Origin: a virus | Virus record (IMG/VR): IMGVR_UViG_3300029982_000012 | DNA length: 64,000 nucleotides | Strand: one strand, 5' to 3' | Shown: in pieces, positions 1,558 through 44,304 of the stretch | How positions within the stretch are numbered: the first letter of the stretch is position 1 | Layout: the number at the start of each line of letters is the position of its first letter | Program-made: the position numbers and the translations under genes | The notes under the pieces: model-generated | What the model saw: only the letters and a program-made list of their open reading frames with translations | What the model was told of the DNA's origin: nothing | Database searches by the model: none

Positions 1558-3066
1558 GTGGACGTAACTATAGTATCTCCCATTAAAGCCTATATATCGA
1601 ATTATACAGAAGATGAACTTTATTCCCTAAGGAAAGAGCTCACTTATACCAATACCGCTATTCAGCATCTAATTAAGAGACATTCCGACAACTGGCGATG
1701 GAAAAATCAGAATATAAATTCTTGGGAAGCCCATCTAGAAGGTCTTAAAAAGGATCTAAAGAAATGTTTGGTATTCGAGGACGAACAAGGCTTCTATATT
1801 AGGCCAGGATCCATACCTCATTTATCAACTTTCAATTTACAAGTCGTAAACAACGTCCAGTACAAAAACTTCACCAAAATTCCTTGGAAGAACCCATTCA
1901 AATTTGAATTACATCCCTACCAAAAAGATTCTGTAAAGAATTTGATCGCGGAAAGACATGGAAATGTCAGTATTACTACAGGAGGAGGGAAAAGTGCTAT
2001 AATATTAAACCTTTGTAAGGAAATGGGCTTAAGAGCCTGCATCGTAGTTCCTGGTAAAGGAATATTCCATGAATCTATTGAAAATTTTGAACATCATTTA
2101 GGTAAGAAAAATGTAGGCTATTTAGGAGACGGAAAAAAGAAGTACGATAAAAGATTTACGATTGCTATTGGAGACTCTCTTGCGAATATTAAGGAGGGAA
2201 CTCCAGAATACGAATTCTTCTCGAATTTGGATGTATTGATTGTAGACGAATCCCATACTTTTGCGGCAGAATCCTTAGAGACAATCTGCCATGGAATTCT
2301 TGGTAAAATTCCCTACCGTATGTTTTTATCGGCAACCCAAAGCCGTGGAGATGGAAGTCTCCCACTATTACAGTCAATTATTGGCAAAACAGTATACGAA
2401 TTAACGACTCAGGAAGGAGTTGAAAAAGGGTACATCTGTGCACACGAGTTTAGGGTAGTGTCTTTAGAATCTTCTAATCCAAGTTTCAGCGCTAATGACG
2501 GTCTTGCCCAAAAAAGGGCTCATTTTTTAAATAATAAAAATATAGCTTCTTTTATTGCAAAATTAGCCAATGCAACTGCTATTTCTCAAGGAAAACAAAC
2601 TCTTGTTTTATGTGAAGAACTTAGCCAGATAGCCATGCTAATTCCTCTTCTGGAAATTCCTTATGCTATTGCACATAGCGAAAAGAATACCAAAAGACTC
2701 GCAGAATTGGGCCTACAAAAAGTAAAGGTCTCAGACAGTATTGAAAAATTCAATAAAAATGAAGTTAAGGTTCTAATTGGTACAAGTTGCCTACATGTGG
2801 GAGTAAATATATTTCCATGTCATTCTGTAGTAAATTGGTTTGGTGGAGCAAGCGATATCAAGGTAAAGCAGGCCGCCGTAGGCCGCAGCGTTAGGTTCGG
2901 AAAATCGAATCCTTGGGCGTCTAAGTGCATACCCAAAGATAAAGCAATTATCTACGATTTCCAGATTTTAAATAATCGTACTATGGAAAGACACTTGCAA
3001 TCACGAATAGAATGCTACTTGGATAGCGGACAAAACCTCATTAAATACATTAAATTAAAGACTTAA
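1558..3066 (+). CDS. superfamily II DEXH helicase (UvsW/Rad25-like)
   Basis: LHPYQ Q-motif, TTGGGKS Walker A, IVDESH, SAT motif III, QAAVGRSVR motif VI. Confidence 0.9.
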   Translation: MDVTIVSPIKAYISNYTEDELYSLRKELTYTNTAIQHLIKRHSDNWRWKNQNINSWEAHLEGLKKDLKKCLVFEDEQGFYIRPGSIPHLSTFNLQVVNNVQYKNFTKIPWKNPFKFELHPYQKDSVKNLIAERHGNVSITTGGGKSAIILNLCKEMGLRACIVVPGKGIFHESIENFEHHLGKKNVGYLGDGKKKYDKRFTIAIGDSLANIKEGTPEYEFFSNLDVLIVDESHTFAAESLETICHGILGKIPYRMFLSATQSRGDGSLPLLQSIIGKTVYELTTQEGVEKGYICAHEFRVVSLESSNPSFSANDGLAQKRAHFLNNKNIASFIAKLANATAISQGKQTLVLCEELSQIAMLIPLLEIPYAIAHSEKNTKRLAELGLQKVKVSDSIEKFNKNEVKVLIGTSCLHVGVNIFPCHSVVNWFGGASDIKVKQAAVGRSVRFGKSNPWASKCIPKDKAIIYDFQILNNRTMERHLQSRIECYLDSGQNLIKYIKLKT

Positions 3067-3075
3067 TTAAAATCC

Positions 3076-3083
3076 ATGATATA
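3076..3083 (+). promoter_or_regulatory. RYGATATA motif upstream of the sigma-factor gene
   Basis: ATGATATA in the 51-nt gap, followed by an AAGGA SD. Confidence 0.5.
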
Positions 3084-3117: not shown

Positions 3118-4155
3118 ATGGCAAGACAACCTAGCAAAAAGTGGAAAGACTCTCATGATCCGTCTTTTGCCCAGTTAGCACTCGAAATTCAAAAAGCAAT
3201 TGAACGCAATAAAGACGGTACTACCCAAAAAGAACAAGTAGAGGAATTGGTATCGGCAGAGCAGGATTTTCACGCATTGGTACTGAGTTACCGAATAAGT
3301 ACTGAAATCTACAAAAGGTTTATTCAACTAATTCGAATTACAAACAACAATATCTTATCTGCTAGACCTTATTTTAGGGAATCCTCCATAACTTTTTCTG
3401 AAAAAATTACTCCTGCCTTAAAAACAAAGGATCCAGAGGCACTAAAGAAATTTAATGTAAACTACCATTTTGTTAAATTCTGCAAAGATCATTGGATTGG
3501 ACTCTGGCCAAAGAAGATTGAAATGCTATATCAAAGGGTTAAGAAGGCAAGAACCATCCTTATTGAAAACAACATGCCATTAGCTGTGAACCGGGCTAAA
3601 ATTTTCTATAGAAGCACGCCTAAAGGCCATCTAAGTTTTATGGATTTAGTTGAGGTAAGTTCCATGGGACTTGCTGCTGGTATTGATAAGTACACCGGCT
3701 CATACAAAAAGAATTACATGGGGGTAGCCATTGGTCGCATCGTTGGTAACCTAATCGACGCATACAGTGAGACCGTAATGCACTTTTATCCCTCAGATCG
3801 AAGAATCCTATACAGGGCCAACAGTATCCGTGGCAGGCAAGGAATTACGGATATAGAGGAGTTGACTAAAGCAGTCAATGAAAGTTTCGTAAAAGATCTT
3901 GAAGAAGGAAGAACCGCACCAAAACCAGTTACGGCCTCAGATCTATGGTATTTGATGTCTGCAGCTAGTCTTATTTCATCTGATTCAAATGATGGGGAAG
4001 AAGGGTTTGGGGTCTACAGTTATACTCCCGATAAAGCCGAAAATGCGGAAGAGACACTTAGCAAGAAACAACAAACTGAGCAAATTTCTGAAATTTCAAG
4101 AAGTATGCCGCTTATAAACCAAAAGGTGTTGAGACTTAAGGGTATTGAAATTTAA
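3118..4155 (+). CDS. sigma-70-family RNA polymerase sigma factor lacking region 4.2
   Basis: LIENNMPLAVNRAK...LSFMDLVEVSSMGLAAGIDKY matches region 2.1-2.2 (LIEANLRLVVSIAK...[21 protein letters not shown]). Colinear through region 3; ends at MPLINQKVLRLKGIEI, equivalent to region 4.1. Confidence 0.8.
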   Translation: MARQPSKKWKDSHDPSFAQLALEIQKAIERNKDGTTQKEQVEELVSAEQDFHALVLSYRISTEIYKRFIQLIRITNNNILSARPYFRESSITFSEKITPALKTKDPEALKKFNVNYHFVKFCKDHWIGLWPKKIEMLYQRVKKARTILIENNMPLAVNRAKIFYRSTPKGHLSFMDLVEVSSMGLAAGIDKYTGSYKKNYMGVAIGRIVGNLIDAYSETVMHFYPSDRRILYRANSIRGRQGITDIEELTKAVNESFVKDLEEGRTAPKPVTASDLWYLMSAASLISSDSNDGEEGFGVYSYTPDKAENAEETLSKKQQTEQISEISRSMPLINQKVLRLKGIEI

Positions 4156-4157
4156 TG

Positions 4158-4186
4158 TTGTTTTTTCTTTTAATTTAATATATGCT
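4158..4186 (+). promoter_or_regulatory. sigma-70-type promoter
   Basis: TTGTTT-17-TATGCT, then AAGGAG SD before ATG 4203. Confidence 0.5.
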
Positions 4187-4202
4187 AATTTAAGGAGAAT
4201 AT

Positions 4203-4403
4203 ATGGAATCAGAATTACAAATTGATTTAGATTGTCTGAAAGAAGATATTAATTTGGGTAATGTTAGGTCCGTACCTGCCAAAACAGTTATGGCCCTAGT
4301 AGACCGAATTGAAAGGTTAGAATATTATCTTGAACAAGAAAAAGTGATCAATAAATCTTTTTCTGAAATGGTAAAACTTTTGAAGCATGGAGCAGAATTG
4401 TGA
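4203..4403 (+). CDS. hypothetical protein (66 aa)
   Basis: Strong SD; overlaps the next gene by GTGA. Confidence 0.7.
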   Translation: MESELQIDLDCLKEDINLGNVRSVPAKTVMALVDRIERLEYYLEQEKVINKSFSEMVKLLKHGAEL

Positions 4404-4732
4404 TTTTTTCGTTGAATAACCGATTATTGCTAGAAGAGTATGTCAAAAAAGGTCTCGAATCAAAAGTCGTAGGCGGCATTGCGACTCCAGGCCAAAGAGA
4501 TGGTATCAAAAAATTAAAAATTCTAGCTGGAACTAGGCTTGCCGATGGAAGAGATATTCCTGCAGGATCGTATGCGTATTTAAGAGAAGAGGCCCTTCAT
4601 ACTCAAGCATGGTCATCTAAACTATTTACTTGCGAGGGCATTACTGGTAAATTCATCCTCGTTGATTTGCAATGGGTAGAATTTATTGAAACCAATTCCA
4701 CAATATCAAAAACTCCGAATCCAGGAGAATAG
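4400..4732 (+). CDS. groES: GroES/Cpn10-like co-chaperonin
   Basis: SLNNRLLLEEYVKKGLESKVVGGIATPG resembles GroES [25 protein letters not shown] (mobile loop GGI); ~100-aa beta-rich size fits. Confidence 0.65.
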   Translation: MIFSLNNRLLLEEYVKKGLESKVVGGIATPGQRDGIKKLKILAGTRLADGRDIPAGSYAYLREEALHTQAWSSKLFTCEGITGKFILVDLQWVEFIETNSTISKTPNPGE

Positions 4733-4745
4733 TTTTACCCATAAT

Positions 4746-4970
4746 ATGAGAATCGGACGACTCTACATCAATTTAATAGACGGATCTCTAGAATTTGGAT
4801 TGGAGACCTTTCCCTGTAAATGTAAGTGCATGAACTTAGGTTTCATTTACTTTATTTGGTCTGATGTAGACTGTAAATGTGCTGCCTGTAAACAGTTTGA
4901 GTGTATTTGTTCTTGCGAATGGTGTGATCAAAAATTTTATAAATGTGAATGTGGCGATGAATCTGCATGA
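4746..4970 (+). CDS. small Cys-rich protein (12 Cys; metal-binding)
   Basis: Probable start ATG 4746; CKCKC...CKCAAC...CICSCEWC...CEC; ATGA overlap with sbcD. Confidence 0.55.
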   Translation: MRIGRLYINLIDGSLEFGLETFPCKCKCMNLGFIYFIWSDVDCKCAACKQFECICSCEWCDQKFYKCECGDESA

Positions 4971-5950
4971 AAAAAATATTGAGATGCGGAGATCCGCACG
5001 TAAAACCCAATAATTTAGAAGAATCCACTAGACTTCTTCAATTCGTATTAGACCAAGCTTTAGAACATAAAGTTGATGTGGTAGAAATTCTTGGAGATCT
5101 TTTCGACACTCATGATATCGTAAGACTTCGAGTTTTAAAATTTTGGCAATATTGGTTTACAGAATTATCAAATCAATCTTTCGAAACACGCATACTGGTC
5201 GGAAACCATGATGTCACCGGAGAATATTCTGATCCATACAGCGCCCTTCACCCATTCCTATCATTGGAAAACGATAATTTTAAAATTATTCATGTACCTT
5301 ATTTAGATGGAATTTATGGCTATCTTCCCTATATCCACTCGAATGATAGGTTTATTGAAGAGGCAAATCTTCTTGCTGCTAATGGAGCAAGAGTTCTAGT
5401 AAGTCACCCTAATTATGAGGGTGCGGTTTACGACAACGGCACCCCTATTACTAGCGGTGTTGCCGATAGCGCATTAGATAGTCGGTATCTTCATCTAATT
5501 GGCGGCCATATTCATACAGAATTGGAAATTGGGCGTGTCTGGTATACAGGTAATCCGAGGTGGCTAACAAAGTCGTGCTCGAATAAGAAAAAAGGGATCT
5601 GGATATGCACTCATGATGACAGCGGCAAAATGACCGAAAAGCAGTTCATCTCAACAGAATCTGTCTGTACCCCGATCGTATCTGTGGTATGGAAAGAAGG
5701 CGAAGACAAACCTCAAATTCCAGAAAATGCCAAAGTTGATATCGAACTCATCGGCTCATCTGATTGGGTTACCAAAGAAAAACTTGCTCTAAAAGGTGTT
5801 AGTGTTTCTAGTAAAATTACCGATAGCAAAAGAAACAAAGAACGAAAAAGCGGTAGTAATTTACGAGATTTCATATTGAACCACTACAAGGCAGATGTTG
5901 AAAAAAGAACTAGAATCCTTAAATATTTAGGAGACTTAAACCTTGTCTGA
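4967..5950 (+). CDS. sbcD: SbcD/Mre11 (gp47-like) metallophosphoesterase nuclease
   Basis: GDPH, GDLFD, GNHD, SH and GHIH motifs; SbcC partner nearby. Confidence 0.9.
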   Translation: MKKILRCGDPHVKPNNLEESTRLLQFVLDQALEHKVDVVEILGDLFDTHDIVRLRVLKFWQYWFTELSNQSFETRILVGNHDVTGEYSDPYSALHPFLSLENDNFKIIHVPYLDGIYGYLPYIHSNDRFIEEANLLAANGARVLVSHPNYEGAVYDNGTPITSGVADSALDSRYLHLIGGHIHTELEIGRVWYTGNPRWLTKSCSNKKKGIWICTHDDSGKMTEKQFISTESVCTPIVSVVWKEGEDKPQIPENAKVDIELIGSSDWVTKEKLALKGVSVSSKITDSKRNKERKSGSNLRDFILNHYKADVEKRTRILKYLGDLNLV

Positions 5951-6263
5951 ATCCGAACCTACTAGCCTAAAAGACTTACGGAACCTCATGATGTTTTTTG
6001 GTCGTGTACCAGAAACGCACGTCAAGAATTTGCAATCACAACCTTTCATTTATTTCGATGGAGTCAAAGAAGCAAATGTTGATTACGATTTAGACACAAA
6101 AGCCAAAAGTTGGTTTGTTAAGTACGATCTTACTTTAGATAAAGAACCTGATTTCTTAACAGAAAGAAGTAAAGGGCTAGAAAAGGCCATTAGACTACTT
6201 TTTTGGAAAGAAGTCGTATTGCATATTGCAATAAACAATAAAGAGGTATATAAAAGTGAGTGA
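5943..6263 (+). CDS. hypothetical protein
   Basis: Packed ORF with GGAG SD and TTG start. Confidence 0.65.
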   Translation: MSESEPTSLKDLRNLMMFFGRVPETHVKNLQSQPFIYFDGVKEANVDYDLDTKAKSWFVKYDLTLDKEPDFLTERSKGLEKAIRLLFWKEVVLHIAINNKEVYKSE

Positions 6264-6960
6264 TCCGAAAGATTTATCCGTAATTCCACATAGCGATTTT
6301 ACCATGAGGGATCTTGAGTTGGTTGAGCAATTCAAAGAAGGGGGTATGCTCGGACTCCATACCTTAACAGACGTAGACGTAGAGAGAATGATGTCTCTTT
6401 ATATGGACGGTAAAAGTTACAGGCAAATTGCTGCTTTACTTAAGAAAAACAAGACGATAGTTCTTTTTTTAGCTCATAAATTCAAATGGTTTGAACTTCG
6501 CGCAGAATATTTAGACGAATTGCATGCGACCCTAAAGGGTAAAATTGTAGAGGCCAAATTACAGGATCAAGAATTTTTATTGCATTTAAGTCTTGCATAT
6601 AAGAAAAAAATAGGTAAAAATATAGATCAGTACTTAAGAACTGACAATTCTGAGTTTTACGACCAGATCAATAGTAGAGATCTAGGGACACTGATGAAAG
6701 TTATGGAAATGCTTCACAAATTAAATAGCGAGAATTTAGGCGAAAGACAGCCCCTTGTTGGTCTCAGTGGTATGAGTGAAGGTGTTAATATTACCAAAAC
6801 AGGCCCTAATTCTGTCGAAATTACTCCAAAACAGACACCATTTGCATCAAAACTTAAACAATTTGCAGAATTAAAGCGCGAACAAGAAAAACAAGAAGCT
6901 GCAGAAAAAAGTGATGATATAAACAAAGAGTCCGATAAAATAAAAAAAAGCAGAAAGTGA
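6256..6960 (+). CDS. HTH-containing protein (possibly terminase small-subunit-like)
   Basis: LYMDGKSYRQIAALLKKNKTIVLFLAHKFKW resembles an HTH followed by helical coiled coil. Confidence 0.5.
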   Translation: MSDPKDLSVIPHSDFTMRDLELVEQFKEGGMLGLHTLTDVDVERMMSLYMDGKSYRQIAALLKKNKTIVLFLAHKFKWFELRAEYLDELHATLKGKIVEAKLQDQEFLLHLSLAYKKKIGKNIDQYLRTDNSEFYDQINSRDLGTLMKVMEMLHKLNSENLGERQPLVGLSGMSEGVNITKTGPNSVEITPKQTPFASKLKQFAELKREQEKQEAAEKSDDINKESDKIKKSRK

Positions 6961-7844
6961 ATAGTAAAATGAATAAAATTGTGATTACCATCCTATTAGG
7001 ACTAGGAGTTGTCCTTATCCCCCACAACTCTATTTCCCAGGGAAAGAGTTCTCCAGATTTAACCCCCACTGTTACCCTAACAAGTAAAAATTTGCTTGTA
7101 TTGAGTGGTGAAGTAGATGGAGAAACAACTTCTGCTGTAATTTCAAGGGCTAAAGAACTTTGTGAAGTTAGTCAGGTTCAAAAATTGTTCGGAAAAAGAC
7201 CAAAACTTAAACTTTTTATCAATTCCCCAGGCGGAGGCATTCAACCTGGATTAGAAATGATTGAAGCTCTTAGGGGTACCGGTTGTCAAATCGATACAAT
7301 CACTACCTTTGCCGCAAGTATGGCTTTTCAAATTGTACAAAATCTGGATGACCGTTTAGTTCTTAAAAATGGCGTTATGATGAGTCACCACGCAGCCGGA
7401 GGCTTTGAAGGCTCTTTTGGTGGAGCTAAACCTTCACAACTAGATAGCCGGTATCAATTTTGGTTGGATCGTATTCGTGAACTTGATGAACAAACAGTAT
7501 CTCGTACCAAAGGAAAACAAACCTATGAAAGTTACCTTAAAGAATATGACCACGAGATGTGGTTAACTGGTACTAAATCGGTACAAGAAGGCTATAGTGA
7601 TGAAGTAGTACTGGTTAAATGCGATTCCAGTATTCAAGGTACTTCTAAGCATAGTTTGGATTTTATGGGAATTGCAATTTCTTATGAATTAGATAATTGC
7701 CCTCTAAATACTGCACCTATGAATATTAGTATGCTTCTTCCTCAAGGCAAGGAATTACCAACAGAAATTAAGAATGAGATTAAATCTAAGTTCTTAAATC
7801 AATTCTATAATTCTCAAAAACAAGAAATCCCAATGTACTGGTAA
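6957..7844 (+). CDS. clpP: ClpP-like (S14) serine protease with N-terminal signal/TM segment
   Basis: FINSPGG, FAASMA (catalytic Ser), MMSHH (His), EMWLT..SVQEGYSDEV; hydrophobic IVITILLGLGVVLIP at the N-terminus. ATGATATA at 6914-6921 upstream. Confidence 0.85.
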   Translation: MNSKMNKIVITILLGLGVVLIPHNSISQGKSSPDLTPTVTLTSKNLLVLSGEVDGETTSAVISRAKELCEVSQVQKLFGKRPKLKLFINSPGGGIQPGLEMIEALRGTGCQIDTITTFAASMAFQIVQNLDDRLVLKNGVMMSHHAAGGFEGSFGGAKPSQLDSRYQFWLDRIRELDEQTVSRTKGKQTYESYLKEYDHEMWLTGTKSVQEGYSDEVVLVKCDSSIQGTSKHSLDFMGIAISYELDNCPLNTAPMNISMLLPQGKELPTEIKNEIKSKFLNQFYNSQKQEIPMYW

Positions 7845-7847
7845 TCA

Positions 7848-8096
7848 ATGCCACTCATTAGCTATTCATGTACTTGCGGAATTAATTTCAAGAAGTACAA
7901 AAAAAATGCAACGGATGCACCACTTTCTCTCCCCTGCGAGTGTGGCCTAGAAGCTAAGAAGGCTTTTGGGCTCACTTCTTCTTCCCATAAAATTGTTATT
8001 GATAATGGCCTTATGTCTCGTAGACTTGAAATTGATCCAGAAATTATGGAGGTCAATGATGAACGATCAAAAAGAGATTACTCTGAAGAGGATTAA
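7848..8096 (+). CDS. FmdB-like zinc-ribbon protein
   Basis: MPLISYSCTCG...CECG resembles MPxYeYxCxxCG zinc ribbons. Confidence 0.65.
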   Translation: MPLISYSCTCGINFKKYKKNATDAPLSLPCECGLEAKKAFGLTSSSHKIVIDNGLMSRRLEIDPEIMEVNDERSKRDYSEED

Positions 8097-8097
8097 T

Positions 8098-8256
8098 ATG
8101 AGCAACCTAACCGAAGAAGAAATCGAAGAATTGGCCATTAAATCTTTTCAGAATATGGGTACCCCAGAAAAATTCCTGTGCGGTGAATGTGGTTGTTGGT
8201 ATAACAATCCAGAATTTTTTGAGCATCCTTGCGTAAAAGAACTTGAAAATAAATAA
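8098..8256 (+). CDS. small zinc-finger-like protein (52 aa)
   Basis: Likely start ATG 8098 after GAGG; CGECG...HPC. Confidence 0.55.
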   Translation: MSNLTEEEIEELAIKSFQNMGTPEKFLCGECGCWYNNPEFFEHPCVKELENK

Positions 8257-8271
8257 ATAGTATTATATTAT
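8243..8271 (+). promoter_or_regulatory. sigma-70-type promoter (leaderless) for sbcC
   Basis: TTGAAA-17-TATTAT ending 6 nt before GTG 8278; no SD. Confidence 0.6.
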
Positions 8272-8277
8272 TACAAA

Positions 8278-10617
8278 GTGCTTATACCAAAAAAACTAAA
8301 ATTTAAAGCTGTAGGTAGATTCGTAGAAGAACAAGTTCTGGACTTTACCGCTCTCGGTTCCTTCATTCAAGTTGACGCCAAGAACAATAACACTGGTGGA
8401 TCTTCTGGAAGTGGCAAGACTACTCTATTTAGAGTATTAGAGTATAACCTGGGCCTGAATGACCTGTCCACATCTCTCCTACAATCTAGGCTAACAAAAG
8501 ACTCCATTTCTACTACTGGCGAATACGATTGGGATGGCACTCCAGTCATAATTGAACGGAACAAATCGAAGTTATCGATTACAGTAGGCGATCAGGTAAC
8601 TACCGGTAGCTCTAAAATTACTGAAGAAAAGTTAGATGAAATTCTAGGTATGCCTAGAGATCTATTTAGAAAGATTCTCCATAAAAGACAGGGCGAGGGA
8701 GGATTTTTCTTGGACATGGGACCATCCGATGTCCACAAGTTTCTAACGAGTTGCTTGAAATTAGAAGATGAGCAAAAGAAAATCCTGAAACTGGACGATA
8801 TCCTCAAAAACCTATCTAGTAAAGAGATTTCTCTTAAATCAGAAGTCGAATCTAATAGAATGGGGCTTGAGGCATCAAGAAATGCCCTAAATAGCCTTGG
8901 AGAGACCCCTAAACCGTCTTTTAATGCAGATTACATCGAGTTGCTAAAGATTGAACACCTCAACGCTACTGACCGATATGATATCGCGGCGAGTGCTTAT
9001 CACAACGAAAAAATGGAACTGGAACGGTCTAGACCCATAACATCAGTGTCTCCTTTTGACAGAAGTTCAATAGAAAAGGCCGAAGTCGAGATCAAGGAAA
9101 TTCAAAAAAAGACGAGTGCCTTAGAATCTGCCGAACTTTCAAGACAATCTGAAGTCAAAAGTCAGATCGAACAGATTTCAAAGAAAATAGGTGATCTAGA
9201 GTTTTCGGAATCTTCAAGACAGTCTGAAGTTAGGAACAAAATAACTTCTTCACAATTGGAAATCTCCAATTTACAGAAAATTGAGCAAAATAGACAAGCG
9301 GAAATCAATGCTAAGATTTCTACCAATAGACTCGAATACAATAAAGCCTCAAATTTGGTTCAAAAAGGCGACCAGGCTAAAGAAGAGGCCAAGAAGTTGG
9401 CTGTGGAATTAAATAAGATTAGGGCCTCAATTTGCCCCACCTGTGAACAGGGATGGATTACAGAGTCCGTTAAGACCAAAGAAGCAGAGATCCTTAATAA
9501 ATTAGGAGAGCACAGGGCAACAGTCCTTGCTGGCGCTGAAGCCCAAAAGACCAAAGCAAGTCTGAATGAACAACACGCAGTTCTTCTTTTGGAAGTTGGT
9601 CCGCGTACAGTACCAGAAATCAATGATCTGACAAATAAGATCGCTCAATTAAGATTAGACTCAACTCCTAAAGAAATCCCAGAAGTTTCTGGTCTCAAAG
9701 CACAAATCGTTCAATTGAGATTGGACGGTACCCCTAAAGTTATTCCAGAAGTATTGGAACTTAAAGGACAATCTGAACTTAAAGAAAAAGAACTTCAAGC
9801 GTTTCGCCAACAAGAGCGAGATCATCAATCTAAAGAAAACACTAAAAATCAAGAAATACTTGCTGAATTTGCAAGAAAACAAACTCAACTGGTGGAAAAA
9901 CATGAACCAAACATCAAGGCGTTTTTAGAACAAAAGAATAAGGCTCTTTCAGACCGTGAGATGGCCGAACTTAAAATTAGATCGTTTGAAGCAGAACTTA
10001 AAAGATATTTAGATTCTTCAGTCAAACTCAATACCCAATTCGTCGATTACGCGCATATCGTGACTCAAAAATCAACTGATTTAGTTTCTATCCAAGAAGA
10101 AATCGAGATCGTAGAAGAATCCAAGAAAGCTATAAAAAGCCACTTATCCTGTTCATTCGATGATGCCCTAGAGTCTATTGGCGATAAGGCCACAAGGCTT
10201 ATTAGGCTAATCCCTAATATGTCCAATGCCACTATACAGTTTGAGGGCACCAAGGAGACCAAGGAAGGCAAGGTTAAGGAAGAAGTCGTCTGTATGGTTA
10301 GTATGGACGGTGAAATTGGAGTGCCTCTTAAATCGCTTTCTGGGGGCGAAAGATCTAGTTGTGACATGTGCGTAGATTTAAGTATCATTAAATTCATTGA
10401 AGAGACTACCGGTAAGGGTATTGGGATGTATATTATCGATGAGGGTTTCAATGGGCTAGATACCACCTGCATCCAGGATGCATTAGAGATGCTTAGAGAA
10501 TATAGTGTTGACAAAAAACTATTTTTAGTAGAACATAATCCTATAGTGTCTGAATCCATTGAAAATAGAATTTTAGTGGTGAGAGATGGTTTGACTAGTA
10601 AGATTATTCAGCAATAA
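8278..10617 (+). CDS. sbcC: SbcC/Rad50 (gp46-like) SMC-type ATPase
   Basis: SGSGKTT Walker A, long coiled coil with CPTC zinc hook, LSGGE signature, IIDEGF Walker B, VEH. Confidence 0.93.
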   Translation: MLIPKKLKFKAVGRFVEEQVLDFTALGSFIQVDAKNNNTGGSSGSGKTTLFRVLEYNLGLNDLSTSLLQSRLTKDSISTTGEYDWDGTPVIIERNKSKLSITVGDQVTTGSSKITEEKLDEILGMPRDLFRKILHKRQGEGGFFLDMGPSDVHKFLTSCLKLEDEQKKILKLDDILKNLSSKEISLKSEVESNRMGLEASRNALNSLGETPKPSFNADYIELLKIEHLNATDRYDIAASAYHNEKMELERSRPITSVSPFDRSSIEKAEVEIKEIQKKTSALESAELSRQSEVKSQIEQISKKIGDLEFSESSRQSEVRNKITSSQLEISNLQKIEQNRQAEINAKISTNRLEYNKASNLVQKGDQAKEEAKKLAVELNKIRASICPTCEQGWITESVKTKEAEILNKLGEHRATVLAGAEAQKTKASLNEQHAVLLLEVGPRTVPEINDLTNKIAQLRLDSTPKEIPEVSGLKAQIVQLRLDGTPKVIPEVLELKGQSELKEKELQAFRQQERDHQSKENTKNQEILAEFARKQTQLVEKHEPNIKAFLEQKNKALSDREMAELKIRSFEAELKRYLDSSVKLNTQFVDYAHIVTQKSTDLVSIQEEIEIVEESKKAIKSHLSCSFDDALESIGDKATRLIRLIPNMSNATIQFEGTKETKEGKVKEEVVCMVSMDGEIGVPLKSLSGGERSSCDMCVDLSIIKFIEETTGKGIGMYIIDEGFNGLDTTCIQDALEMLREYSVDKKLFLVEHNPIVSESIENRILVVRDGLTSKIIQQ

Positions 10618-10629
10618 TATGGGGTTACG

Positions 10630-11010
10630 GTGATACTACTTGAATTGACAGAAGAAGAACTAAATATTATTAAGAAAGCGATTATTACAGAGCATAAATT
10701 AGATGAACAGTTACTGTTTAACGAAAAACAGAAAAAAGAGCGTCTCTGCCTATCTACATTAACTAAAATCGAACTTACAACGCTCGCGCAAAAAGACACA
10801 CTGATTAAATACGATGACTTTGAAAATATGGTTAGCATAGCAAAACAAAACTACGTAAGGTTAGGGACAGAGGTCTTTCTTTCGAATAAGAAAGTGGAAG
10901 AGAATTATTTTGTCTATCTGTGTTTTTTAGAAGCTTTTACTTCTTGGTTAAACGAAAAGAATTTGCTTAAACGATTAGCCCGTTTTGATTTTACTGATAA
11001 AAGATGGTGA
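10630..11010 (+). CDS. hypothetical protein
   Basis: ORF in operon context. Confidence 0.65.
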   Translation: MILLELTEEELNIIKKAIITEHKLDEQLLFNEKQKKERLCLSTLTKIELTTLAQKDTLIKYDDFENMVSIAKQNYVRLGTEVFLSNKKVEENYFVYLCFLEAFTSWLNEKNLLKRLARFDFTDKRW

Positions 11011-11013
11011 TTT

Positions 11014-11358
11014 ATGAAATGTAAATGTGGAGAACAGGGAGAACTTAAAGTCTTTAATACTTTTCAGTATTATTTTTGCAATAAATGCAAAAAGGAGATA
11101 GAAGAGTGTAAAATTGAAGAAAATCCCAACAATGCTAGCGTTGATGATTTCTATCTTGATTTGGCAGAACAAAATATTAAAAGCGCCTTAAAGAACATAA
11201 ATGATTATTTTCAGCGTGATCAGGGCCAAAAAATAACCATTACTATTCCAACAAGTACCAAACTTCATTATAAAATTTATAGAAATACACAGGGTATTTA
11301 TAGAGAGTTACATGTCAAAAGTGACAGTAAAAACTGGGAAATAATCGAAAGGAAATAA
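11014..11358 (+). CDS. hypothetical protein with N-terminal zinc ribbon
   Basis: MKCKCG...YYFCNKCK. Confidence 0.6.
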   Translation: MKCKCGEQGELKVFNTFQYYFCNKCKKEIEECKIEENPNNASVDDFYLDLAEQNIKSALKNINDYFQRDQGQKITITIPTSTKLHYKIYRNTQGIYRELHVKSDSKNWEIIERK

Positions 11359-11359
11359 T

Positions 11360-11662
11360 ATGGGTCGTCCAAAAAAACAACCGTTATCAGAAATGCAGAA
11401 AATGGCTAAGAAAATTGGTACAGATGGAGAGGATGTTCTCCGAGAACTAGAAGGTATGTCTGTACCTGAAATCAATAAACGTATTGCGCAAGCAAATCAG
11501 GCTATCTCAGAAACCAAAGAGGAGTTGGAAGCTAACGATAAATATACGGCAGCAAAGAATGATGTTAAACTCCTCAGTTCTGGATTCCGTGAAGTAAAGG
11601 CTCGCCAGAACGCAATTATCGGTGTTGCAGTGAAACTTCGCCAAGAAAAAGGCGAGTCTTAA
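11360..11662 (+). CDS. hypothetical coiled-coil protein
   Basis: AAGGA SD; helical heptads. Confidence 0.7.
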   Translation: MGRPKKQPLSEMQKMAKKIGTDGEDVLRELEGMSVPEINKRIAQANQAISETKEELEANDKYTAAKNDVKLLSSGFREVKARQNAIIGVAVKLRQEKGES

Positions 11663-11671
11663 TTGGCTAAG

Positions 11672-11803
11672 ATGAAAGAATGGACTAAGATCAGGCTCAT
11701 GTATGTTCTTAGTCCAGTAATTTTTGTTGGAATTATAGCCTATGGAGCTATTCTCGACATTAGCGACCAAATTTCGACTAAATTGCGTAGGTTTAAGAAA
11801 TAG
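11672..11803 (+). CDS. small single-pass membrane protein (43 aa)
   Basis: Below the ORF-track cutoff: MKEWTKIRLMYVLSPVIFVGIIAYGAILDISDQISTKLRRFKK fills the gap exactly. Confidence 0.55.
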   Translation: MKEWTKIRLMYVLSPVIFVGIIAYGAILDISDQISTKLRRFKK

Positions 11804-11806
11804 GAT

Positions 11807-12472
11807 ATGGATACCAAACGAATACTTAGTATTGATCTCAGCACAAAAACAGGTTGGGCTTCAGTAATAAGTTCGGATGTGGGTATTGAATTGGAAGGTT
11901 ACGGTATGATTCCCCAAATTCCACAACCGAATGGTCCTTATCCATCATGTTTTATTGATTGGGCCTATTTGGTATTTAATGGTATAGAAGGACTTATAGA
12001 GAAATTTAGACCTGATATGCTTGCCATAGAAGAAACTGTGGCGGGATCAAAAGCAGTATATAGCCAAAAGATTTTAGAATATTCTCATTTTTTACTTGCT
12101 AAATACATAAAAGAGAATAATATAGAATCTATATACTTACTAACGGGCGCTTGGAGAAGTGAAGTTGGCTGCAAAATGACCAAAGAAGAATCTAAACATA
12201 ATAAGGAAGTTAGGGCCTATAAGACTAAACATGGCACCAAGTTAGCTCGTGATATAAACGGTAAGATTGTTGGTAAGTTAACCAAGAAGCATATCAATAT
12301 TAGGAGAGCAAATGAAGTGTTCGGTTCTTTTTTGAGAGAGCCTCTTAGAAAAAAGAATGAAGATGAAGCCGACGCACTTTTACTAGCGTTCGCACTACAT
12401 CTTAGAAGACTTAATAAAAATAAGTCTGAAGAAGTGACCATAGAAGAACTTTTAGAGAAAGATAAGTTATGA
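11807..12472 (+). CDS. RuvC-like Holliday junction resolvase
   Basis: ILSIDLSTKTGWA, LAIEE and DEADALLLA catalytic acidic motifs. Confidence 0.8.
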   Translation: MDTKRILSIDLSTKTGWASVISSDVGIELEGYGMIPQIPQPNGPYPSCFIDWAYLVFNGIEGLIEKFRPDMLAIEETVAGSKAVYSQKILEYSHFLLAKYIKENNIESIYLLTGAWRSEVGCKMTKEESKHNKEVRAYKTKHGTKLARDINGKIVGKLTKKHINIRRANEVFGSFLREPLRKKNEDEADALLLAFALHLRRLNKNKSEEVTIEELLEKDKL

Positions 12473-13341
12473 GTGGATTTTGGGAAAAAACGATTAATAC
12501 GGAATCAAATATAAGAGCCTACGAATCTATCGCGCCAGAACCTTTGGTGTTAGACGAAGAAGCTGTATCTGAAATTCAAGAAGAACACTTTGACGTATAT
12601 GAGGAAGAGGAAGATGACATTTCTGTAGTCATGGCAGATGCAAATCTTCGCCTTGAGATGGGTCGTCTATATCAAATGATTCTTGAAAATGATATTTTTG
12701 CCCAAACGAACGCTGATCCTCGTGCGATTAAAAACGTACAAAGAGAGATTCGTCGTCTGGTTAGAGAGAAACTGGAAATCATGCTAGGTATTCGCCAAGA
12801 TCAACCTACGCAACAACAAACCATTGTTTCGTCGCCATTTAACGATATGGAAGTTAGCGCCTTAAAAATGCTTGCTTCTAAGATCACAAAGGGAGCCACT
12901 GAAGAAGTTGAATATAGTCGAAATACCCCAGTACCAGTTCCACAACCTAAAAAGAACGGTATTACCGCAATTAGCGGTGAACTTAGACCACAGACTACTC
13001 CTGTACTAAAAGCACCTGAGCGACGCCCAGTAACCAAAAGTTCTTCGCAAACTCCTGCTAAAAGACCAGAGCCTAAAAAAGGTGAACCAATTATTAAGTC
13101 CGCAATATCAAATCCAGAAGGAGATTCGCTATTAAAAAAACCAATTAACGAAATGACCCCGGAAGAATTAGTGGAATATGATAAACAAGCGCTTGAGAGA
13201 CGGTCAAAAAACAAAGCCGCCTTACCTTCAAATCTTGTTCCTCATCCTTCACCCCAAGAATTAGAACTTAGATATATGGCCCATGCTGACCAATTTAGTG
13301 CGGTAGCAAACACCATAAATTTAATTTCTGGTAATAAATAA
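12469..13341 (+). CDS. hypothetical protein
   Basis: 290-aa ORF with ATGA overlap. Confidence 0.75.
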   Translation: MSGFWEKTINTESNIRAYESIAPEPLVLDEEAVSEIQEEHFDVYEEEEDDISVVMADANLRLEMGRLYQMILENDIFAQTNADPRAIKNVQREIRRLVREKLEIMLGIRQDQPTQQQTIVSSPFNDMEVSALKMLASKITKGATEEVEYSRNTPVPVPQPKKNGITAISGELRPQTTPVLKAPERRPVTKSSSQTPAKRPEPKKGEPIIKSAISNPEGDSLLKKPINEMTPEELVEYDKQALERRSKNKAALPSNLVPHPSPQELELRYMAHADQFSAVANTINLISGNK

Positions 13342-13372
13342 GTAGATAAATAAAAACAAGGAGAAAAATAAA

Positions 13373-14152
13373 ATGTCAGATAACAAAGATACACGAACTG
13401 CTGGTCAAAAAATTGAAGATCTTGAACGAGTGGTGTCAATGCTATATCAATCCGTAGGATCTCTAGATGGGGCCGTTAAATCCCTATTAGGAACCCAAAG
13501 GGATATGGTTTTGGTACGGGATGCTTTACGCCTACTAAACAAAAAAACCGAAGCAATTATTCAGACAGCAAAAGAAGAGTCTGGAATTTCTGCCTCTAAT
13601 GTATCGGCCCTAGTAATTCAAATGAATGTTGAGGATTTAAAAACTCAAGTCCAAGAATATATCAGCCGAGGAAATTTAACTCCAGCAGATGAAGTGTCTG
13701 CCACAAGTTACTTGGTTTGCGAAGAGCAAAATCTAGATGGAACAATTGCGAATCCACGAATTCAATTCCGTTTAGATTCTCAAGATGCGGATACCCAAGC
13801 TACCTTGACTGGTAAGAAAGTTGGAGATACAGTTTCTTTTGGTGAAGGAAAGTATAGCGCTAAGATTCTTGAAATCTACACTTTGGTAGACAATCCAGGT
13901 GCTGCTCAAAATGCTCCCGCTCCCGCTGCAGAGACTCAGGCCCCTACAGATCAAGCAAGTAGCGATACTTCTGCCCAATCAGCAGCGCCAGCCGATGAGA
14001 CTCCTGCTCCAACCCAAACTCCTCAAGCAGCAACACCTGCAGCCCCAGCACAAAACAGTCTTCCACAAGAAACTCCGGTAGCTTTTGGATTAAGTTTTCA
14101 TGGACAACCCGAAGCCGAACTATCTGCTCCGAGCACTCCAGGTCAGAATTAA
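13373..14152 (+). CDS. coiled-coil plus GreA/GreB-C-terminal/FKBP-like domain protein with Ala/Pro/Gln tail
   Basis: LTGKKVGDTVSFGEGKYSAKILEIY resembles Gre C-terminal LLGKKVGDTVEV...YEILEI; AAGGAG SD. Confidence 0.5.
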   Translation: MSDNKDTRTAGQKIEDLERVVSMLYQSVGSLDGAVKSLLGTQRDMVLVRDALRLLNKKTEAIIQTAKEESGISASNVSALVIQMNVEDLKTQVQEYISRGNLTPADEVSATSYLVCEEQNLDGTIANPRIQFRLDSQDADTQATLTGKKVGDTVSFGEGKYSAKILEIYTLVDNPGAAQNAPAPAAETQAPTDQASSDTSAQSAAPADETPAPTQTPQAATPAAPAQNSLPQETPVAFGLSFHGQPEAELSAPSTPGQN

Positions 14153-14173
14153 TCTGACTCCTACAACACAAAT

Positions 14174-14208
14174 AATAAGGGTAAAACATGGACGGTTTTA
14201 CCCTTATT
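14174..14208. terminator. perfect 14-bp inverted repeat (terminator or processing hairpin)
   Basis: AATAAGGGTAAAAC-atggacg-GTTTTACCCTTATT immediately after ORF 13373. Confidence 0.6.
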
Positions 14209-14223
14209 TAAGAAGGCTAAATC

Positions 14224-15048
14224 ATGAAAAAAGACGGACCAAAAATTTTAATATTTGATATTGAGACCGCGCCAATGTTGGCCTATGTTTGGAGTATTTG
14301 GGATCAAAATGTTGGTCTGAATCAAATTAAACAGGATTGGCATCTTCTTAGTTGGTCAGCAAAATGGCTGCAGTCCGAAGACCGAAAACGACTTTATGGT
14401 CCCCATTCCAAAATAATGTACATGGACCAATCTAAAGAAAAAGTTCTAACTAACGATAAGAAAATATTAGAGGGCATTTGGAAACTTCTTGATGAAGCAG
14501 ATATTGTCATTACCCAAAATGGGGTTAAATTTGACAGTAAAAAATTAAATGCACGGTTCGTTCTTAATGGAATGCAACCTCCAAGTTCTTATAAACATAT
14601 AGACACTTTTCAAATAGCTAAGAGATATTTTGGTTTTACTAGTAACAAACTAGAATATATGTCGGATAAACTTTGCGTTAAATACAAAAAACAAACAAAA
14701 CGTAAATATTCAGGCTTTGAACTATGGAAAGAATGCTTATCTGGGAACAAAGATGCCTGGAGAGAAATGCAAAAATACAATAAATACGATGTCTTATCCT
14801 TGGAAGAACTGTATCATAAGTTAATTCCATGGGATAATTCAATTAATTTCGATATTTACAGAGAAGACCATGAAATTACCTGTAAGTGTGGTAGCAAAGA
14901 ATTCCAAAGAAATGGGTACTTTTATACTGCAACTGCCAAATACCAACGATTTAAGTGCTCTAAGTGCGGGTCTGAAACCAGAAGTCGTAAGAATTTGCTT
15001 TCAAAAGAAAAAAACGAAACTATTAGAGCTAAAACTATTAGAACTTAA
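14224..15048 (+). CDS. DEDDy/RNase H-like 3'-5' exonuclease with C-terminal zinc ribbon
   Basis: IFDIET, QNGVKFD, YNKYDV; CKCG...CSKCG. Confidence 0.85.
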   Translation: MKKDGPKILIFDIETAPMLAYVWSIWDQNVGLNQIKQDWHLLSWSAKWLQSEDRKRLYGPHSKIMYMDQSKEKVLTNDKKILEGIWKLLDEADIVITQNGVKFDSKKLNARFVLNGMQPPSSYKHIDTFQIAKRYFGFTSNKLEYMSDKLCVKYKKQTKRKYSGFELWKECLSGNKDAWREMQKYNKYDVLSLEELYHKLIPWDNSINFDIYREDHEITCKCGSKEFQRNGYFYTATAKYQRFKCSKCGSETRSRKNLLSKEKNETIRAKTIRT

Positions 15049-15054
15049 CTTTTC

Positions 15055-15062
15055 ATGATATA
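15055..15062 (+). promoter_or_regulatory. RYGATATA motif upstream of the 15088/15479 operon
   Basis: ATGATATA (here also reads as an extended -10, TGATATAAT). Confidence 0.55.
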
Positions 15063-15087
15063 ATCTGTCTAAGGATAGGACGATTTC

Positions 15088-15477
15088 GTGAATAAAGCCG
15101 AAGAACTTGACAAATTAGATAAAGAAATAAAAACTGCTGAAACAAGCCAGAAGTCTATTCAGACCAATATTGATCAGTTATCCAAAGAAATCAATATATT
15201 AAATAAACAAAAAATAGAATTAGAACAAAATCTAGAATTCCATAAAAGAGTTGGTGTAATTCCGCTTGCTCATGAGTACGGGAAATCTAAGAGAGAATTA
15301 ACCAAAGTCACAAATCGTCTTAACCTTATTACGAGTGACCATAGTAAATCCGTCCAAGGTCTTGATCGTGTTAAGGAAATCATAGTAAAATTTAGAAGGG
15401 ACTACATGAGACTATTAAACTCAAATGAGGATAATGTCGTGCGAGCCATTTTTGGAGTTAAACGTGGAAAGAAGTGA
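15088..15477 (+). CDS. coiled-coil hypothetical protein
   Basis: Heptad-rich ORF with AGGA SD. Confidence 0.7.
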   Translation: MNKAEELDKLDKEIKTAETSQKSIQTNIDQLSKEINILNKQKIELEQNLEFHKRVGVIPLAHEYGKSKRELTKVTNRLNLITSDHSKSVQGLDRVKEIIVKFRRDYMRLLNSNEDNVVRAIFGVKRGKK

Positions 15478-15478
15478 A

Positions 15479-15679
15479 ATGGAAAAAAAAGTAAGAGAAG
15501 AAGATGATTTCATCCATTCTCCAAAGTTCGGGAATAGCATCAAAAGATTTTTAGCAAAAATGGAAAATCCACCAGAAAATACAACCATTGGGCGACTCCT
15601 TTTACTTTCAGAAGAAGAAGTCGAAAAACTATACCAGGAATCAGTTGTAATCCTTCGAGAAAAAATGCTTAATAAATAG
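15479..15679 (+). CDS. stand-alone sigma region-4-like HTH protein (66 aa)
   Basis: Start ATG 15479. TTIGRLLLLSEEEVEKLYQESVVILREKM fits the sigma-4.2 pattern xEIGxLLxxSxxxVxxxxxxAxxxLRxxL. Confidence 0.55.
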   Translation: MEKKVREEDDFIHSPKFGNSIKRFLAKMENPPENTTIGRLLLLSEEEVEKLYQESVVILREKMLNK

Positions 15680-15682
15680 ATA

Positions 15683-15712
15683 TTGACTTTAAGCCAAAAT
15701 ACCATATACTAT
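15683..15712 (+). promoter_or_regulatory. sigma-70-type promoter (leaderless)
   Basis: TTGACT-16/18-TATACT/TACTAT, 6-8 nt before ATG 15719. Confidence 0.6.
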
Positions 15713-15718
15713 TATGGT

Positions 15719-16354
15719 ATGTCAAATTACCTCTGTTGCATGGATAGTGAAACTGGCGGCCTAAATCCCAAAGAAGCAGATATCCTAACTCTGTTCATGG
15801 CCTTAACTGATGAAAATCTTAAGGTCATAGCTGAATTAGATCTAAAACTTAAACCCAATGATAGAAATCCCACAGCAGATGAGGGCGCTTTAAAGGTCAA
15901 TAAAATTGATATTAAGGCCCATCTAAACGATCCCAATACGATAACATATAAAGAAGCAAAAACTAAAATTATTGATTTTGTCACGCCATTCCTTAAAAAA
16001 ACTGGTCGTCATAGTAATTTGATTGTGCTCGGCCAGAATGTGGCTTTTGATTTGGATTTTATTTGGGAACATATCATTCCAAAAAATGAATGGAACGGCC
16101 TTTTTAGTTACAATGTAGAAGACACAAAGACAGCATCGTTATTCTTGAAAAGATGTGGATGGTTGCCCTCGGATATCGGTACTCTTAAGAGTTTGGTAGA
16201 ATTCTTTGGAATCGCAAAGCGTGAAGCCCATGAAGCTAAGGGCGACGTACATATGACAATCGATGTTTACAAGGCAATGATTTCTCTTATGGAAAGCAAA
16301 AAAGATAGCGGTGGCCAAACGCAAGATCTAATCAGTCTTCTGGAGGCAGAATGA
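15719..16354 (+). CDS. DEDDh (DnaQ/epsilon-like) 3'-5' exonuclease
   Basis: MDSETGG, GQNVAFDL, HEAKGDV; lies just upstream of dnaE. Confidence 0.88.
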   Translation: MSNYLCCMDSETGGLNPKEADILTLFMALTDENLKVIAELDLKLKPNDRNPTADEGALKVNKIDIKAHLNDPNTITYKEAKTKIIDFVTPFLKKTGRHSNLIVLGQNVAFDLDFIWEHIIPKNEWNGLFSYNVEDTKTASLFLKRCGWLPSDIGTLKSLVEFFGIAKREAHEAKGDVHMTIDVYKAMISLMESKKDSGGQTQDLISLLEAE

Positions 16355-16914: not shown

Positions 16915-17126
16915 AAATATGGTTTGATTATTGTAGCATGGAACATTTCCATGATGATTTTTACAACATAAAACTTGGTATTGGTTGGTATCGTCACGCC
17001 AAAACACACAAATGGTGGGGTTTTACGGTAGAATTTTATTTCTTTAAGTGGGTTGTATTCGTAAACTACGTAAGTAATTGGAATGAATATGACAAGAAAG
17101 TCAATTATAGAAAATACAAAAAATGA
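16911..17126 (+). CDS. aromatic-rich hypothetical protein
   Basis: ATGA-coupled at both ends. Confidence 0.6.
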   Translation: MKIWFDYCSMEHFHDDFYNIKLGIGWYRHAKTHKWWGFTVEFYFFKWVVFVNYVSNWNEYDKKVNYRKYKK

Positions 17127-25690: not shown

Positions 25691-26596
25691 ATGATACAGG
25701 TTGATAGACCAGCACCAGAGAAACGCAAAATCAGTAGTAAAGACGATTTCGAATTATGTTACTTAAGACATCAGTATCTTCGTAAAGCTAAGGGCAATCC
25801 TAGTATTGAAGAGATGGCTCCTTACATGAAAATTGTTGAGAATCTCTCAAGAAAAACTTTCTTTACCTATTACAATCTGTTTAAAACCGTTGGGATGTAT
25901 CTAGATGACGTAACAAGCATTGGCCAAGTTCATTTGGTTTCTTTTTTAAATCTATTTACATTAGAAAAAATGGAAGAGAAAAACGATGAATGGATTGAAA
26001 AATGGCTGTTAAGACATGAAGGCAATCCTCCTGAACCTAAAGATTTCTTACAACAAAACAGGGCAAATTTTTCTATTTTTTATAAACAAAGAATGGAAGA
26101 TCTAGTAAGGATTTGTAAGAAAAAATTAAGAAATATTAAGGGTCAGTCATCAGAGGAATATTTGGCTTTTACAGGCAATTCTGAACTTCCACGATATCCA
26201 ACAAAATTAATTAAGAATTATGCGGATTATGGATTCAAAAAAATCGATTTTCCAACATTCAAATCAATTAGAAAAAAAGCGAATGTAAAAAACAGTGTAA
26301 CAGCCTTTCAATTCGATGAGTCCTGGTACATATGTTTTCCAATACAACAAAGGGATCTACAAATTGAAGATTTAATCGTTTCTGATGTCAATCCTTATTG
26401 TAATCTCTACAATAAACGCCCAGATCAGGTTTATAATGCCGATGAACTTCAAAAGTTCATGAATAGATTTGACAATAAGCCTAATGATAAAAAGGCGCTT
26501 ATTTTGAAGAAATTCATTGCAAAAAATAGAAATAAGAGCGAATATAGAAAAGAAGTGTCTACAGCCAAAAAACTTCTAAAATCAATCGGGGCGTAA
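25691..26596 (+). CDS. hypothetical protein, possible divergent sigma-factor-like (region 2)
   Basis: PYMKIVENLSRK...GMYLDDVTSIGQVHLVSFL...ANFSIFYKQRMEDLVR resembles sigma regions 2.1-2.4; AGGAG SD. Confidence 0.45.
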   Translation: MIQVDRPAPEKRKISSKDDFELCYLRHQYLRKAKGNPSIEEMAPYMKIVENLSRKTFFTYYNLFKTVGMYLDDVTSIGQVHLVSFLNLFTLEKMEEKNDEWIEKWLLRHEGNPPEPKDFLQQNRANFSIFYKQRMEDLVRICKKKLRNIKGQSSEEYLAFTGNSELPRYPTKLIKNYADYGFKKIDFPTFKSIRKKANVKNSVTAFQFDESWYICFPIQQRDLQIEDLIVSDVNPYCNLYNKRPDQVYNADELQKFMNRFDNKPNDKKALILKKFIAKNRNKSEYRKEVSTAKKLLKSIGA

Positions 26597-38258: not shown

Positions 38259-38271
38259 AAAACTCCTTTAA

Positions 38272-38811: not shown

Positions 38812-38830
38812 ATATCCTTACCTGTATATA

Positions 38831-38845
38831 TATATCATAAGATTG
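38831..38845 (-). promoter_or_regulatory. overlapping CAATCTTA and ATGATATA motifs
   Basis: CAATCTTATGATATA on the - strand upstream of the GIY-YIG gene. Confidence 0.6.
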
Positions 38846-38852
38846 TCGGCCC

Positions 38853-39902: not shown

Positions 39903-39910
39903 ATAAACCT

Positions 39911-39918
39911 TATATCAC
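39911..39918 (-). promoter_or_regulatory. RYGATATA motif 8 nt before ATG (leaderless)
   Basis: GTGATATA in the 17-nt gap. Confidence 0.5.
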
Positions 39919-39919
39919 A

Positions 39920-44203: not shown

Positions 44204-44247
44204 CTTTGGCTCCAACTATGGTGTGATTAATTTCACCTTATACTTCA

Positions 44248-44255: not shown

Positions 44256-44257
44256 GG

Positions 44258-44297: not shown

Positions 44298-44304
44298 GTT
44301 ATTA

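Follow-up and report, generated by a model that had tools for sequence, protein, structure and literature searches.

The sequence analysed here is a window of 64,000 nt (the whole stretch of DNA under study) of a 114.5-kb IMG/VR virus record (IMGVR_UViG_3300029982_000012), which is estimated to be 71% complete; the G+C content of the window is 37–45%. Two of its genes are the subject of this report. One encodes a 345-residue protein of the sigma-70 family that lacks the helix-turn-helix (HTH) of region 4.2, and the other encodes an acidic protein of 66 residues that resembles the lacking part. Both genes are located within a plus-strand block of genes for DNA metabolism. The positions of the genes, protein segments and upstream motifs are given in Table 1.

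The 345-residue protein and its C-terminal end

The relationship of the larger protein to known sigma factors was assessed by single-sequence scans, by profile comparison and by structure prediction. Single-protein scans against Pfam and PHROG were nearly blank for the large as well as the small protein; the 345-residue protein reached no Pfam model, PF04542 included, and gave a short 'sigma factor' match across region 2 only in PHROG (PHROG_351, E-value 3e-5). The family was found to comprise 558 homologues in a word-indexed search and 397 clusters at 50% identity in an exhaustive search, and its members are frequent in environmental metagenomes, with hundreds of clusters and contigs of 150–177 kb. 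A profile of 74 diverse homologues matched the RpoD/SigA chains of the PDB with an E-value of 2.7e-11 in a single alignment from region 2.1 to LTAREAKVLRMRFGID, which runs unbroken through regions 3 and 4.1 in the canonical order; the family consensus ends with '...LsllerKiLkLkGve'. The AlphaFold2 (AF2) model of the protein had a predicted local distance difference test score (pLDDT) of 89.6, and all 50 top Foldseek matches were group-1 or group-2 sigma factors. With VIA-align, model residues ∼9–345 were superimposed on residues ∼90–566 of sigma70 across dozens of holoenzyme structures (the equivalent stretches are 53–281 in RpoS and 78–376 in Thermus SigA). The product of this gene is a sigma-70-family protein and, from the end points of both the profile and the structural alignment, it spans regions 1.2 to 4.1 and, of region 4.2, the first helix. 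The core-binding 2.2 motif is well kept in the family, with D190 and K191 invariant and G184 and L185 nearly so. Residues ∼78–100 would correspond to region 1.2 of sigma70, as judged from motif likeness. The pLDDT falls to 50–63 across residues 281–310. The protein terminates 5 residues past the first 4.2 helix, and relative to sigma70 the last ∼47 residues, which form the HTH, are missing. An alignment by eye in the initial annotation had placed the end of the protein just before this HTH, and the profile and the superposition, which stops at sigma70 residue 566, agree with it.

Nearly all homologues are ∼340–355 residues long and align through query residue ∼344, and all 26 extracted C-terminal tails end in LKG[IV]x[ILF]. 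Since length, tails and alignment ends are shared, a frameshift or assembly artefact, which the initial annotation had considered as a way in which its proposal could fail, is excluded. Likewise, in 25 genomes the small open reading frame (ORF) has its frame intact and shows conserved columns, at identities as low as 26–31%. Together with the hundreds of homologues of the large protein that have an identical length and C-terminus, this leaves next to no room for the explanation that the truncation is an artefact or that the 66-codon ORF is not a gene. Longer relatives were inspected as possible full-length sigma factors with a region 4.2, and none was retained: about 15 homologues of 589–824 residues carry an intein (PF14890 or Hint), and a 414-residue variant ends just past the same first 4.2 helix. 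The intein insertion point is near residues 217–225 (window positions ∼3766–3792), beside the nearly invariant P225 at the boundary of regions 2 and 3 (examples are P0198, P0213 and P0291). A search of the whole record with PF04545 gave no match.

Other ORFs were considered as the missing half or as a second sigma-like gene, and rejected. A different 66-aa ORF, at 4203–4403 directly after the sigma gene, is present only in the three closest relatives. The ORF at 6256–6960 (234 aa) was not significant against a sigma-4 profile (P = 0.13); it has a weak N-terminal HTH (HTH_38, E-value 7e-4; a Sigma70_r4_2-like stretch, E-value 0.02). For the 301-aa ORF at 25691–26596 no supporting signal as a second sigma-like gene was obtained from PHROG, the PDB, the alignment of profiles (hhalign) with the sigma family or a feature search.

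Two adjacent halves of sigma-4

A word-indexed search returned only 25 close homologues of the 66-residue protein, and the family alignment has 30 members. Behind the family-specific N-terminal part, which may be a docking element, the consensus reads ...(P)DGVE(N/D)xxIA(R/K)LLxxSEEEVExIYQEAVxxLR. In the recognition helix (SEEEVEKLYQESVVILR in the window) positions 45–49 are E-E-E-V-E in at least 19 of the 30 members, and Glu residues are aligned with R584, R586 and R588 of sigma70. The Arg residues of the sigma70 recognition helix contact the −35 element. Most members have an isoelectric point of 4.3–5.6. The C-termini are variable and acidic, and no conserved hydrophobic tail was seen in the 30-member alignment as a possible clamp-binding motif.

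The best matches of the small-family profile in the PDB were FliA, another sigma factor and WhiG, all at the region 4.2 HTH, with E-values of 0.12–1.3. PF04545 was matched by 5 of the 30 members, at best with an E-value of 0.0064 and below the curated cut-offs, and single members gave weak matches to Sigma70_r4, GerE, PhyR sigma-like and PHROG sigma families. In a language-model feature search the nearest neighbours of the 66-residue protein were stand-alone viral Sigma70_r4 mini-proteins of the ESM Atlas, i.e. clusters of 69–79 residues with PF04545 in 63–83% of their members (score 0.93, 177–178 of 256 features). Aligned to the sigma-4 profile with hhalign, the family scored 24.7, compared to 11.3 and 9.2 for reversed sequences and at most 14.1 for 60 column shuffles. 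The small protein resembles the HTH of region 4.2 more closely than expected by chance. This ORF, 11 kb from the sigma gene, had been proposed in the initial annotation to carry the missing pattern with an acidic recognition helix, and both parts of that statement hold. No fused or longer version of the small protein was found in a weak search, and tblastn with the small protein gave no match in the phage collection. A fold search with the AF2 model of the small protein returned only unrelated helical matches (Z ≤ 6) and was uninformative.

We then compared both families with one sigma-4 profile, which was built from E. coli RpoD, RpoS, RpoH, FliA and RpoE. The large family covers columns 7–42 (hhalign P = 4.4e-4) and the small family columns 46–82 (P of about 2e-4 to 3e-4). 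The two families thus correspond to adjacent, non-overlapping halves of sigma-4 whose break points agree within about three columns, and the cut falls in the loop that corresponds to GIDMNTDYT of sigma70. The first sigma-4 helix (L..RE..VL.LR) is not on the small protein; it is located on the large one. When the last 45 residues of the sigma proteins were concatenated, genome by genome, with the small proteins from residue 28, one continuous alignment of 76 columns with sigma-4 was obtained (Prob 94.5, P = 7.4e-8). With the uncut small proteins there was still one alignment, in which the N-terminal 33 residues formed a single insertion (Prob 81, P = 1.2e-5).

The initial annotation had suggested a check of co-occurrence in related phages. 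In a profile search of whole records, both genes were found in 25 of the 26 related records that carry the sigma gene, and in all 18 records that are at least 90% complete, including Myxococcus phage Mx1. The small ORF of Mx1 was found with an E-value of 1e-9. A reciprocal check starting from divergent small proteins yielded one further contig of 124 kb, in which the sigma gene was also present. The small family was found only in genomes with the truncated sigma, wherever the contig was long enough to judge. Phage Mx1 is the sole cultured relative that was detected, and the presence of the pair in this phage makes the proposal testable. The 335-residue 'putative RNA polymerase sigma factor' of Mx1 has 38.6% identity with the 345-residue protein and is encoded downstream of a helicase gene (OR576727.2; the sigma gene is annotated at 2071–3078, and the small ORF is at 157479–157679 on the minus strand).

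Contact between the two proteins was assessed by complex prediction, using residues 296–345 of the large protein and the small protein, both as alignments. The ipSAE score was 0.52 (0.51–0.54 in separate runs), with 0.00 for all three controls; the partner had a pLDDT of 77 and the contact agreement was at least 94%. The mark of the tool is reached by 58 of 80 solved complexes and by 2 of 110 mismatched pairs, but only 7 of the 80 solved complexes passed at a score of 0.60 or lower, and both passing mismatches are in that range. In the grading of the tool, this is weak support for binding of the sigma-4 remnant to the small protein.

Near-invariance of N19-S20 in the small protein had raised the idea of trans-splicing by a split intein. 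This candidate was rejected, as the large protein has only 3 residues past the conserved Gly and no Cys/Ser nucleophile.

Gene neighbourhood and upstream motifs

Table 1. Positions in the window of the two genes, their protein segments, neighbouring genes and upstream motifs.
Feature	Position	Strand	Remarks
Helicase gene	1558–3066	+	stop at 3066
ATGATATA motif	3076–3083	+	extended −10-like (TGnTATA); intergenic, between helicase stop (3066) and ATG at 3118; 35 nt before sigma start
Gene for 345-aa sigma-70-family protein	3118–4155	+	no region 4.2 HTH; profile, AF2 model, fold search
Putative region 1.2-like segment, residues ∼78–100	3349–3417	+	conserved NILxARPYFRE; conserved columns
Region 2, residues ∼130–220	3505–3777	+	core-binding 2.2 motif GL..G.DK; PHROG and profile
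Region 3 (residues ∼225–283) and low-confidence 3.2-like linker (∼284–309)	3790–4044	+	profile alignment, pLDDT
Sigma-4 remnant: region 4.1 helix (310–329) and first 4.2 helix (332–340)	4045–4137	+	profile, AF2 model, tails
SbcD/gp47-like nuclease gene	4967–5950	+	3' of sigma gene; seen in 80 related loci
Protease-like gene	6957–7844	+	
SbcC/gp46-like gene	8278–10617	+	
RuvC-like resolvase gene	11807–12472	+	
Exonuclease-like gene	14224–15048	+	
ATGATATA motif, here TGATATAAT	15055–15062	+	perfect extended −10 pattern; 25 nt before GTG at 15088
129-aa ORF	15088–15477	+	first gene of unit, GTG start; homologue upstream in 9 of 25 related loci
Gene for 66-aa acidic sigma-4.2-like protein	15479–15679	+	ATG start (MEKKV); conservation in relatives
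Family-specific N-terminal part, residues 1–27	15479–15559	+	conserved D10, P15, N19-S20-L21; no sigma-4 counterpart
Putative HTH half of sigma-4, residues 28–64	15560–15670	+	short helix IGRLL, turn, recognition helix; profiles
DnaQ-like 3'-5' exonuclease gene	15683–16354	+	customary 3' neighbour of 66-aa gene
1204-aa DNA polymerase gene	17123–20737	+	
CAATCTTA motifs	38838–38845, 47095–47102, 50570–50577, 52060–52067, 63783–63790	−	7–48 nt before five gene starts

The initial annotation had noted that ATGATATA precedes both transcription units. The two sites are indeed present, but the gene of the 66-residue protein is the second of its unit, with one base between the stop codon of the 129-aa ORF and its ATG. 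The number of copies in the window (6, with 3.46 expected) is not above chance. Intergenic DNA makes up ∼5% of the window and contains four of the 6 sites, 18–35 nt before a start codon; ATGATATA(W) sites precede the starts at 3118, 15088, 38811 (minus strand) and 44215 (minus strand). Upstream of the sigma gene, ATGATATA or TGnTATAAT was seen in a minority of the relatives, and in many of them the sigma gene abuts the helicase gene. A second motif, CAATCTTA, is intergenic in 5 of its 6 copies in the window, and its total count is not above chance either; the minus-strand genes that it precedes include one of 2390 codons. It is a candidate for a promoter class with a single element. One could speculate that both subunits are expressed from the extended −10 sites by means of the host sigma and would then serve the other promoter class.

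Directly 3' of the sigma gene is an ORF of 110 aa (4400–4732), which is conserved in 56 related loci, that of Mx1 included, and had no match in Pfam or PHROG. Its end is overlapped by a 94-aa ORF (4686–4970), kept in 11 related loci, of which the C-terminal half is very Cys-rich (with runs such as CKCKC and CICSCEWC). A megablast search of the phage collection with 13 kb gave no match. The G+C fraction is 0.435–0.447 across positions 36001–48000, where very large genes (801, 1431 and 913 aa) form a block on the minus strand, and 0.37–0.39 elsewhere.

A proposed sigma factor of two polypeptides and its counterparts in known systems

With moderate confidence, we propose that the sigma factor of this phage works as two polypeptides, with sigma-4 rebuilt from both. 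The large subunit would bind core RNA polymerase and would recognize and open a −10 element, extended or not; its regions 1.2, 2 and 3, 3.2 linker, region 4.1 and first 4.2 helix are all that a primary-type sigma requires for this. The small subunit would contribute the last two helices of sigma-4, the HTH, behind its family-specific N-terminal piece. Together they may restore a sigma-4-like module that is able to sit on the beta flap, and the likely roles of this module are to occupy the flap and to complete the interface of sigma and core. Because Glu residues take the positions of the Arg residues that contact −35, the module is unlikely to recognize a −35 box, and the holoenzyme is expected to use promoters that have one element only, near −10. 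The small gene is part of the gene cluster of the DNA polymerase, and the sigma factor may therefore become fully active only when the replication genes are expressed.

Several observations weigh against a sigma factor of two polypeptides. The putative contact between the proteins comes from one complex prediction that passed weakly, and by itself the small protein gave a poor AF2 model (pLDDT 65). Each half-domain match is modest by itself (P of ∼3e-4, PDB E-values of at least 0.12, Pfam scores below the curated cut-offs). The two genes are never adjacent; they are 10–32 kb apart, and in Mx1 they are on opposite strands. Co-occurrence could simply reflect two core genes of one clade, and neither an unsplit ancestor nor a fused form was found in what was a weak search. 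In most relatives the small gene is linked to the gene of the DnaQ-like exonuclease, with which a role in the replisome would fit as well.

This last role is one of two competing explanations. The small protein could be a replisome accessory, for instance a theta-like partner of DnaQ, with a likeness to sigma-4.2 that is a generic resemblance between helix-turn-helix proteins. In ∼20 of 25 related loci its gene directly precedes that of the exonuclease, and the gene of the 1204-residue DNA polymerase is nearby. The protein is small, acidic and helical, its recognition helix does not suit contact with DNA, and each score for similarity to sigma-4 is modest. The best matches by sequence, profile and features are, however, to sigma region 4.2 and not to any replisome family, and the match of the small protein begins where the truncated sigma ends; the score of 0.52 for the predicted complex, versus 0.00 for the controls, adds weak support on the same side. 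The position of the small gene is no argument against a role in transcription, since T4 gene 33 is likewise among replication genes. Overall, a replisome accessory appears improbable.

The other explanation, which we consider unlikely yet clearly less so than the replisome accessory, takes the large protein as a self-sufficient sigma factor that recognizes −10 only. The small protein would then be an independent sigma-4-like factor acting on the host polymerase or sigma, or a small regulator with a partner of its own. It might, for example, compete for the beta flap or for an activator surface and thereby shut down host promoters that depend on −35. In line with this, the small protein combines a likeness to sigma-4.2 with an acidic character, its gene is distant from the sigma gene and belongs to another module, and stand-alone viral Sigma70_r4 mini-proteins exist in sizeable clusters; moreover, the 1993 work of Kumar et al. 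is said to have shown that sigma70 without region 4 functions at extended −10 promoters. In sigma70, binding to the flap is partly due to region 4.1 and the first 4.2 helix. The small protein has neither, and exactly these elements are retained on the large protein; an independent factor would also leave aside the match of the break points within about three columns and the confinement of the small family to genomes with the truncated sigma. The initial annotation had offered a sigma-4 mimic that displaces the host sigma as one of its interpretations, and with the flap-contacting helices remaining on the large protein such a mimic becomes less likely. Its other interpretation, an independently evolved two-part sigma, is not borne out in that form: no similarity to gp33 was detected, and the small protein resembles an HTH half that came loose from a true sigma-4, which favours fission of one sigma factor. 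On the whole the observation of the initial annotation is confirmed, and its interpretation is partly supported.

The proposed sigma factor of two polypeptides can be compared with several known systems. RpoD/SigA and RpoS (groups 1 and 2) have regions 1.2, 2, 3, 4.1 and the first 4.2 helix in the same order as the large protein, and the small protein resembles their region 4.2 HTH. Unlike in RpoD/SigA, the sigma-4 of the phage is divided over two genes 11 kb apart, and its recognition helix carries Glu. Two-subunit sigma factors as such are already known, and the published split sigmas are SigO/RsoA of B. subtilis, Sig7/Sig8 of Tn916, gp34/gp33 of SPO1 and gp55/gp33 of T4 (bioRxiv 10.64898/2026.10.01.756105). 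The two proteins of SigO/RsoA and of Sig7/Sig8 jointly supply regions 2 and 4, and for SPO1 gp34/gp33 the preprint states no domain content (bioRxiv 10.64898/2026.10.01.756105). As in these three pairs, the functions for promoter specificity would be spread over two polypeptides, both of which are to join RNA polymerase. The division in SigO/RsoA and Sig7/Sig8 presumably falls between regions 2 and 4, whereas in the phage it falls inside sigma-4, between the second helix and the HTH, and the genes are not neighbours. In literature searches no publication was found in which a sigma factor is divided within domain 4, and a division at this point would be new. If the proposal is correct, a cut inside sigma-4 would mean that two chains can together form even so small a domain, and the phage would provide a natural sigma-4 module that holds its place on RNA polymerase without reading DNA.

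Late transcription of phage T4 employs gp55, which is sigma-2-like, the flap-binding co-activator gp33 and the gp45 clamp (PMC7892883, PMC2988020). T4 gp33 is reported to be structurally unrelated to sigma region 4; it clamps the flap tip helix and has acidic residues opposite the beta-prime zinc-binding domain (PMC7892883). Neither phage protein has a detectable sequence relation to its T4 counterpart: hhalign gave P = 0.11 over 9 columns for the small family with gp33, and P = 0.063 over 27 columns, outside region 2, for the large family with gp55. In contrast to gp33, the small protein is sigma-4.2-like, and gp55 lacks regions 3 and 4.1, both of which the large protein retains. In function, a rebuilt sigma-4 that occupies the flap would be comparable to gp33. 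The phage probably also uses a −10-only logic, with a small acidic protein in the position of sigma-4 that does not read −35. The small gene, like T4 gene 33, is among replication genes, and the sigma, SbcD-like and SbcC-like genes are in the same order and in one direction (3118–10617) as T4 genes 55, 47 and 46. The phage pair suggests a possible route from an ordinary sigma to a −10-only system with an accessory flap-binding protein, as in late transcription of T4. Tentatively, and with somewhat less confidence than for the two-polypeptide sigma itself, we place the phage pair between a normal sigma and T4 gp55/gp33: a sigma-4 cut in the loop before its HTH would be rebuilt non-covalently from two genes of different modules across a large clade of ∼150–177-kb phages, with the acidic half as a possible replication-linked switch.

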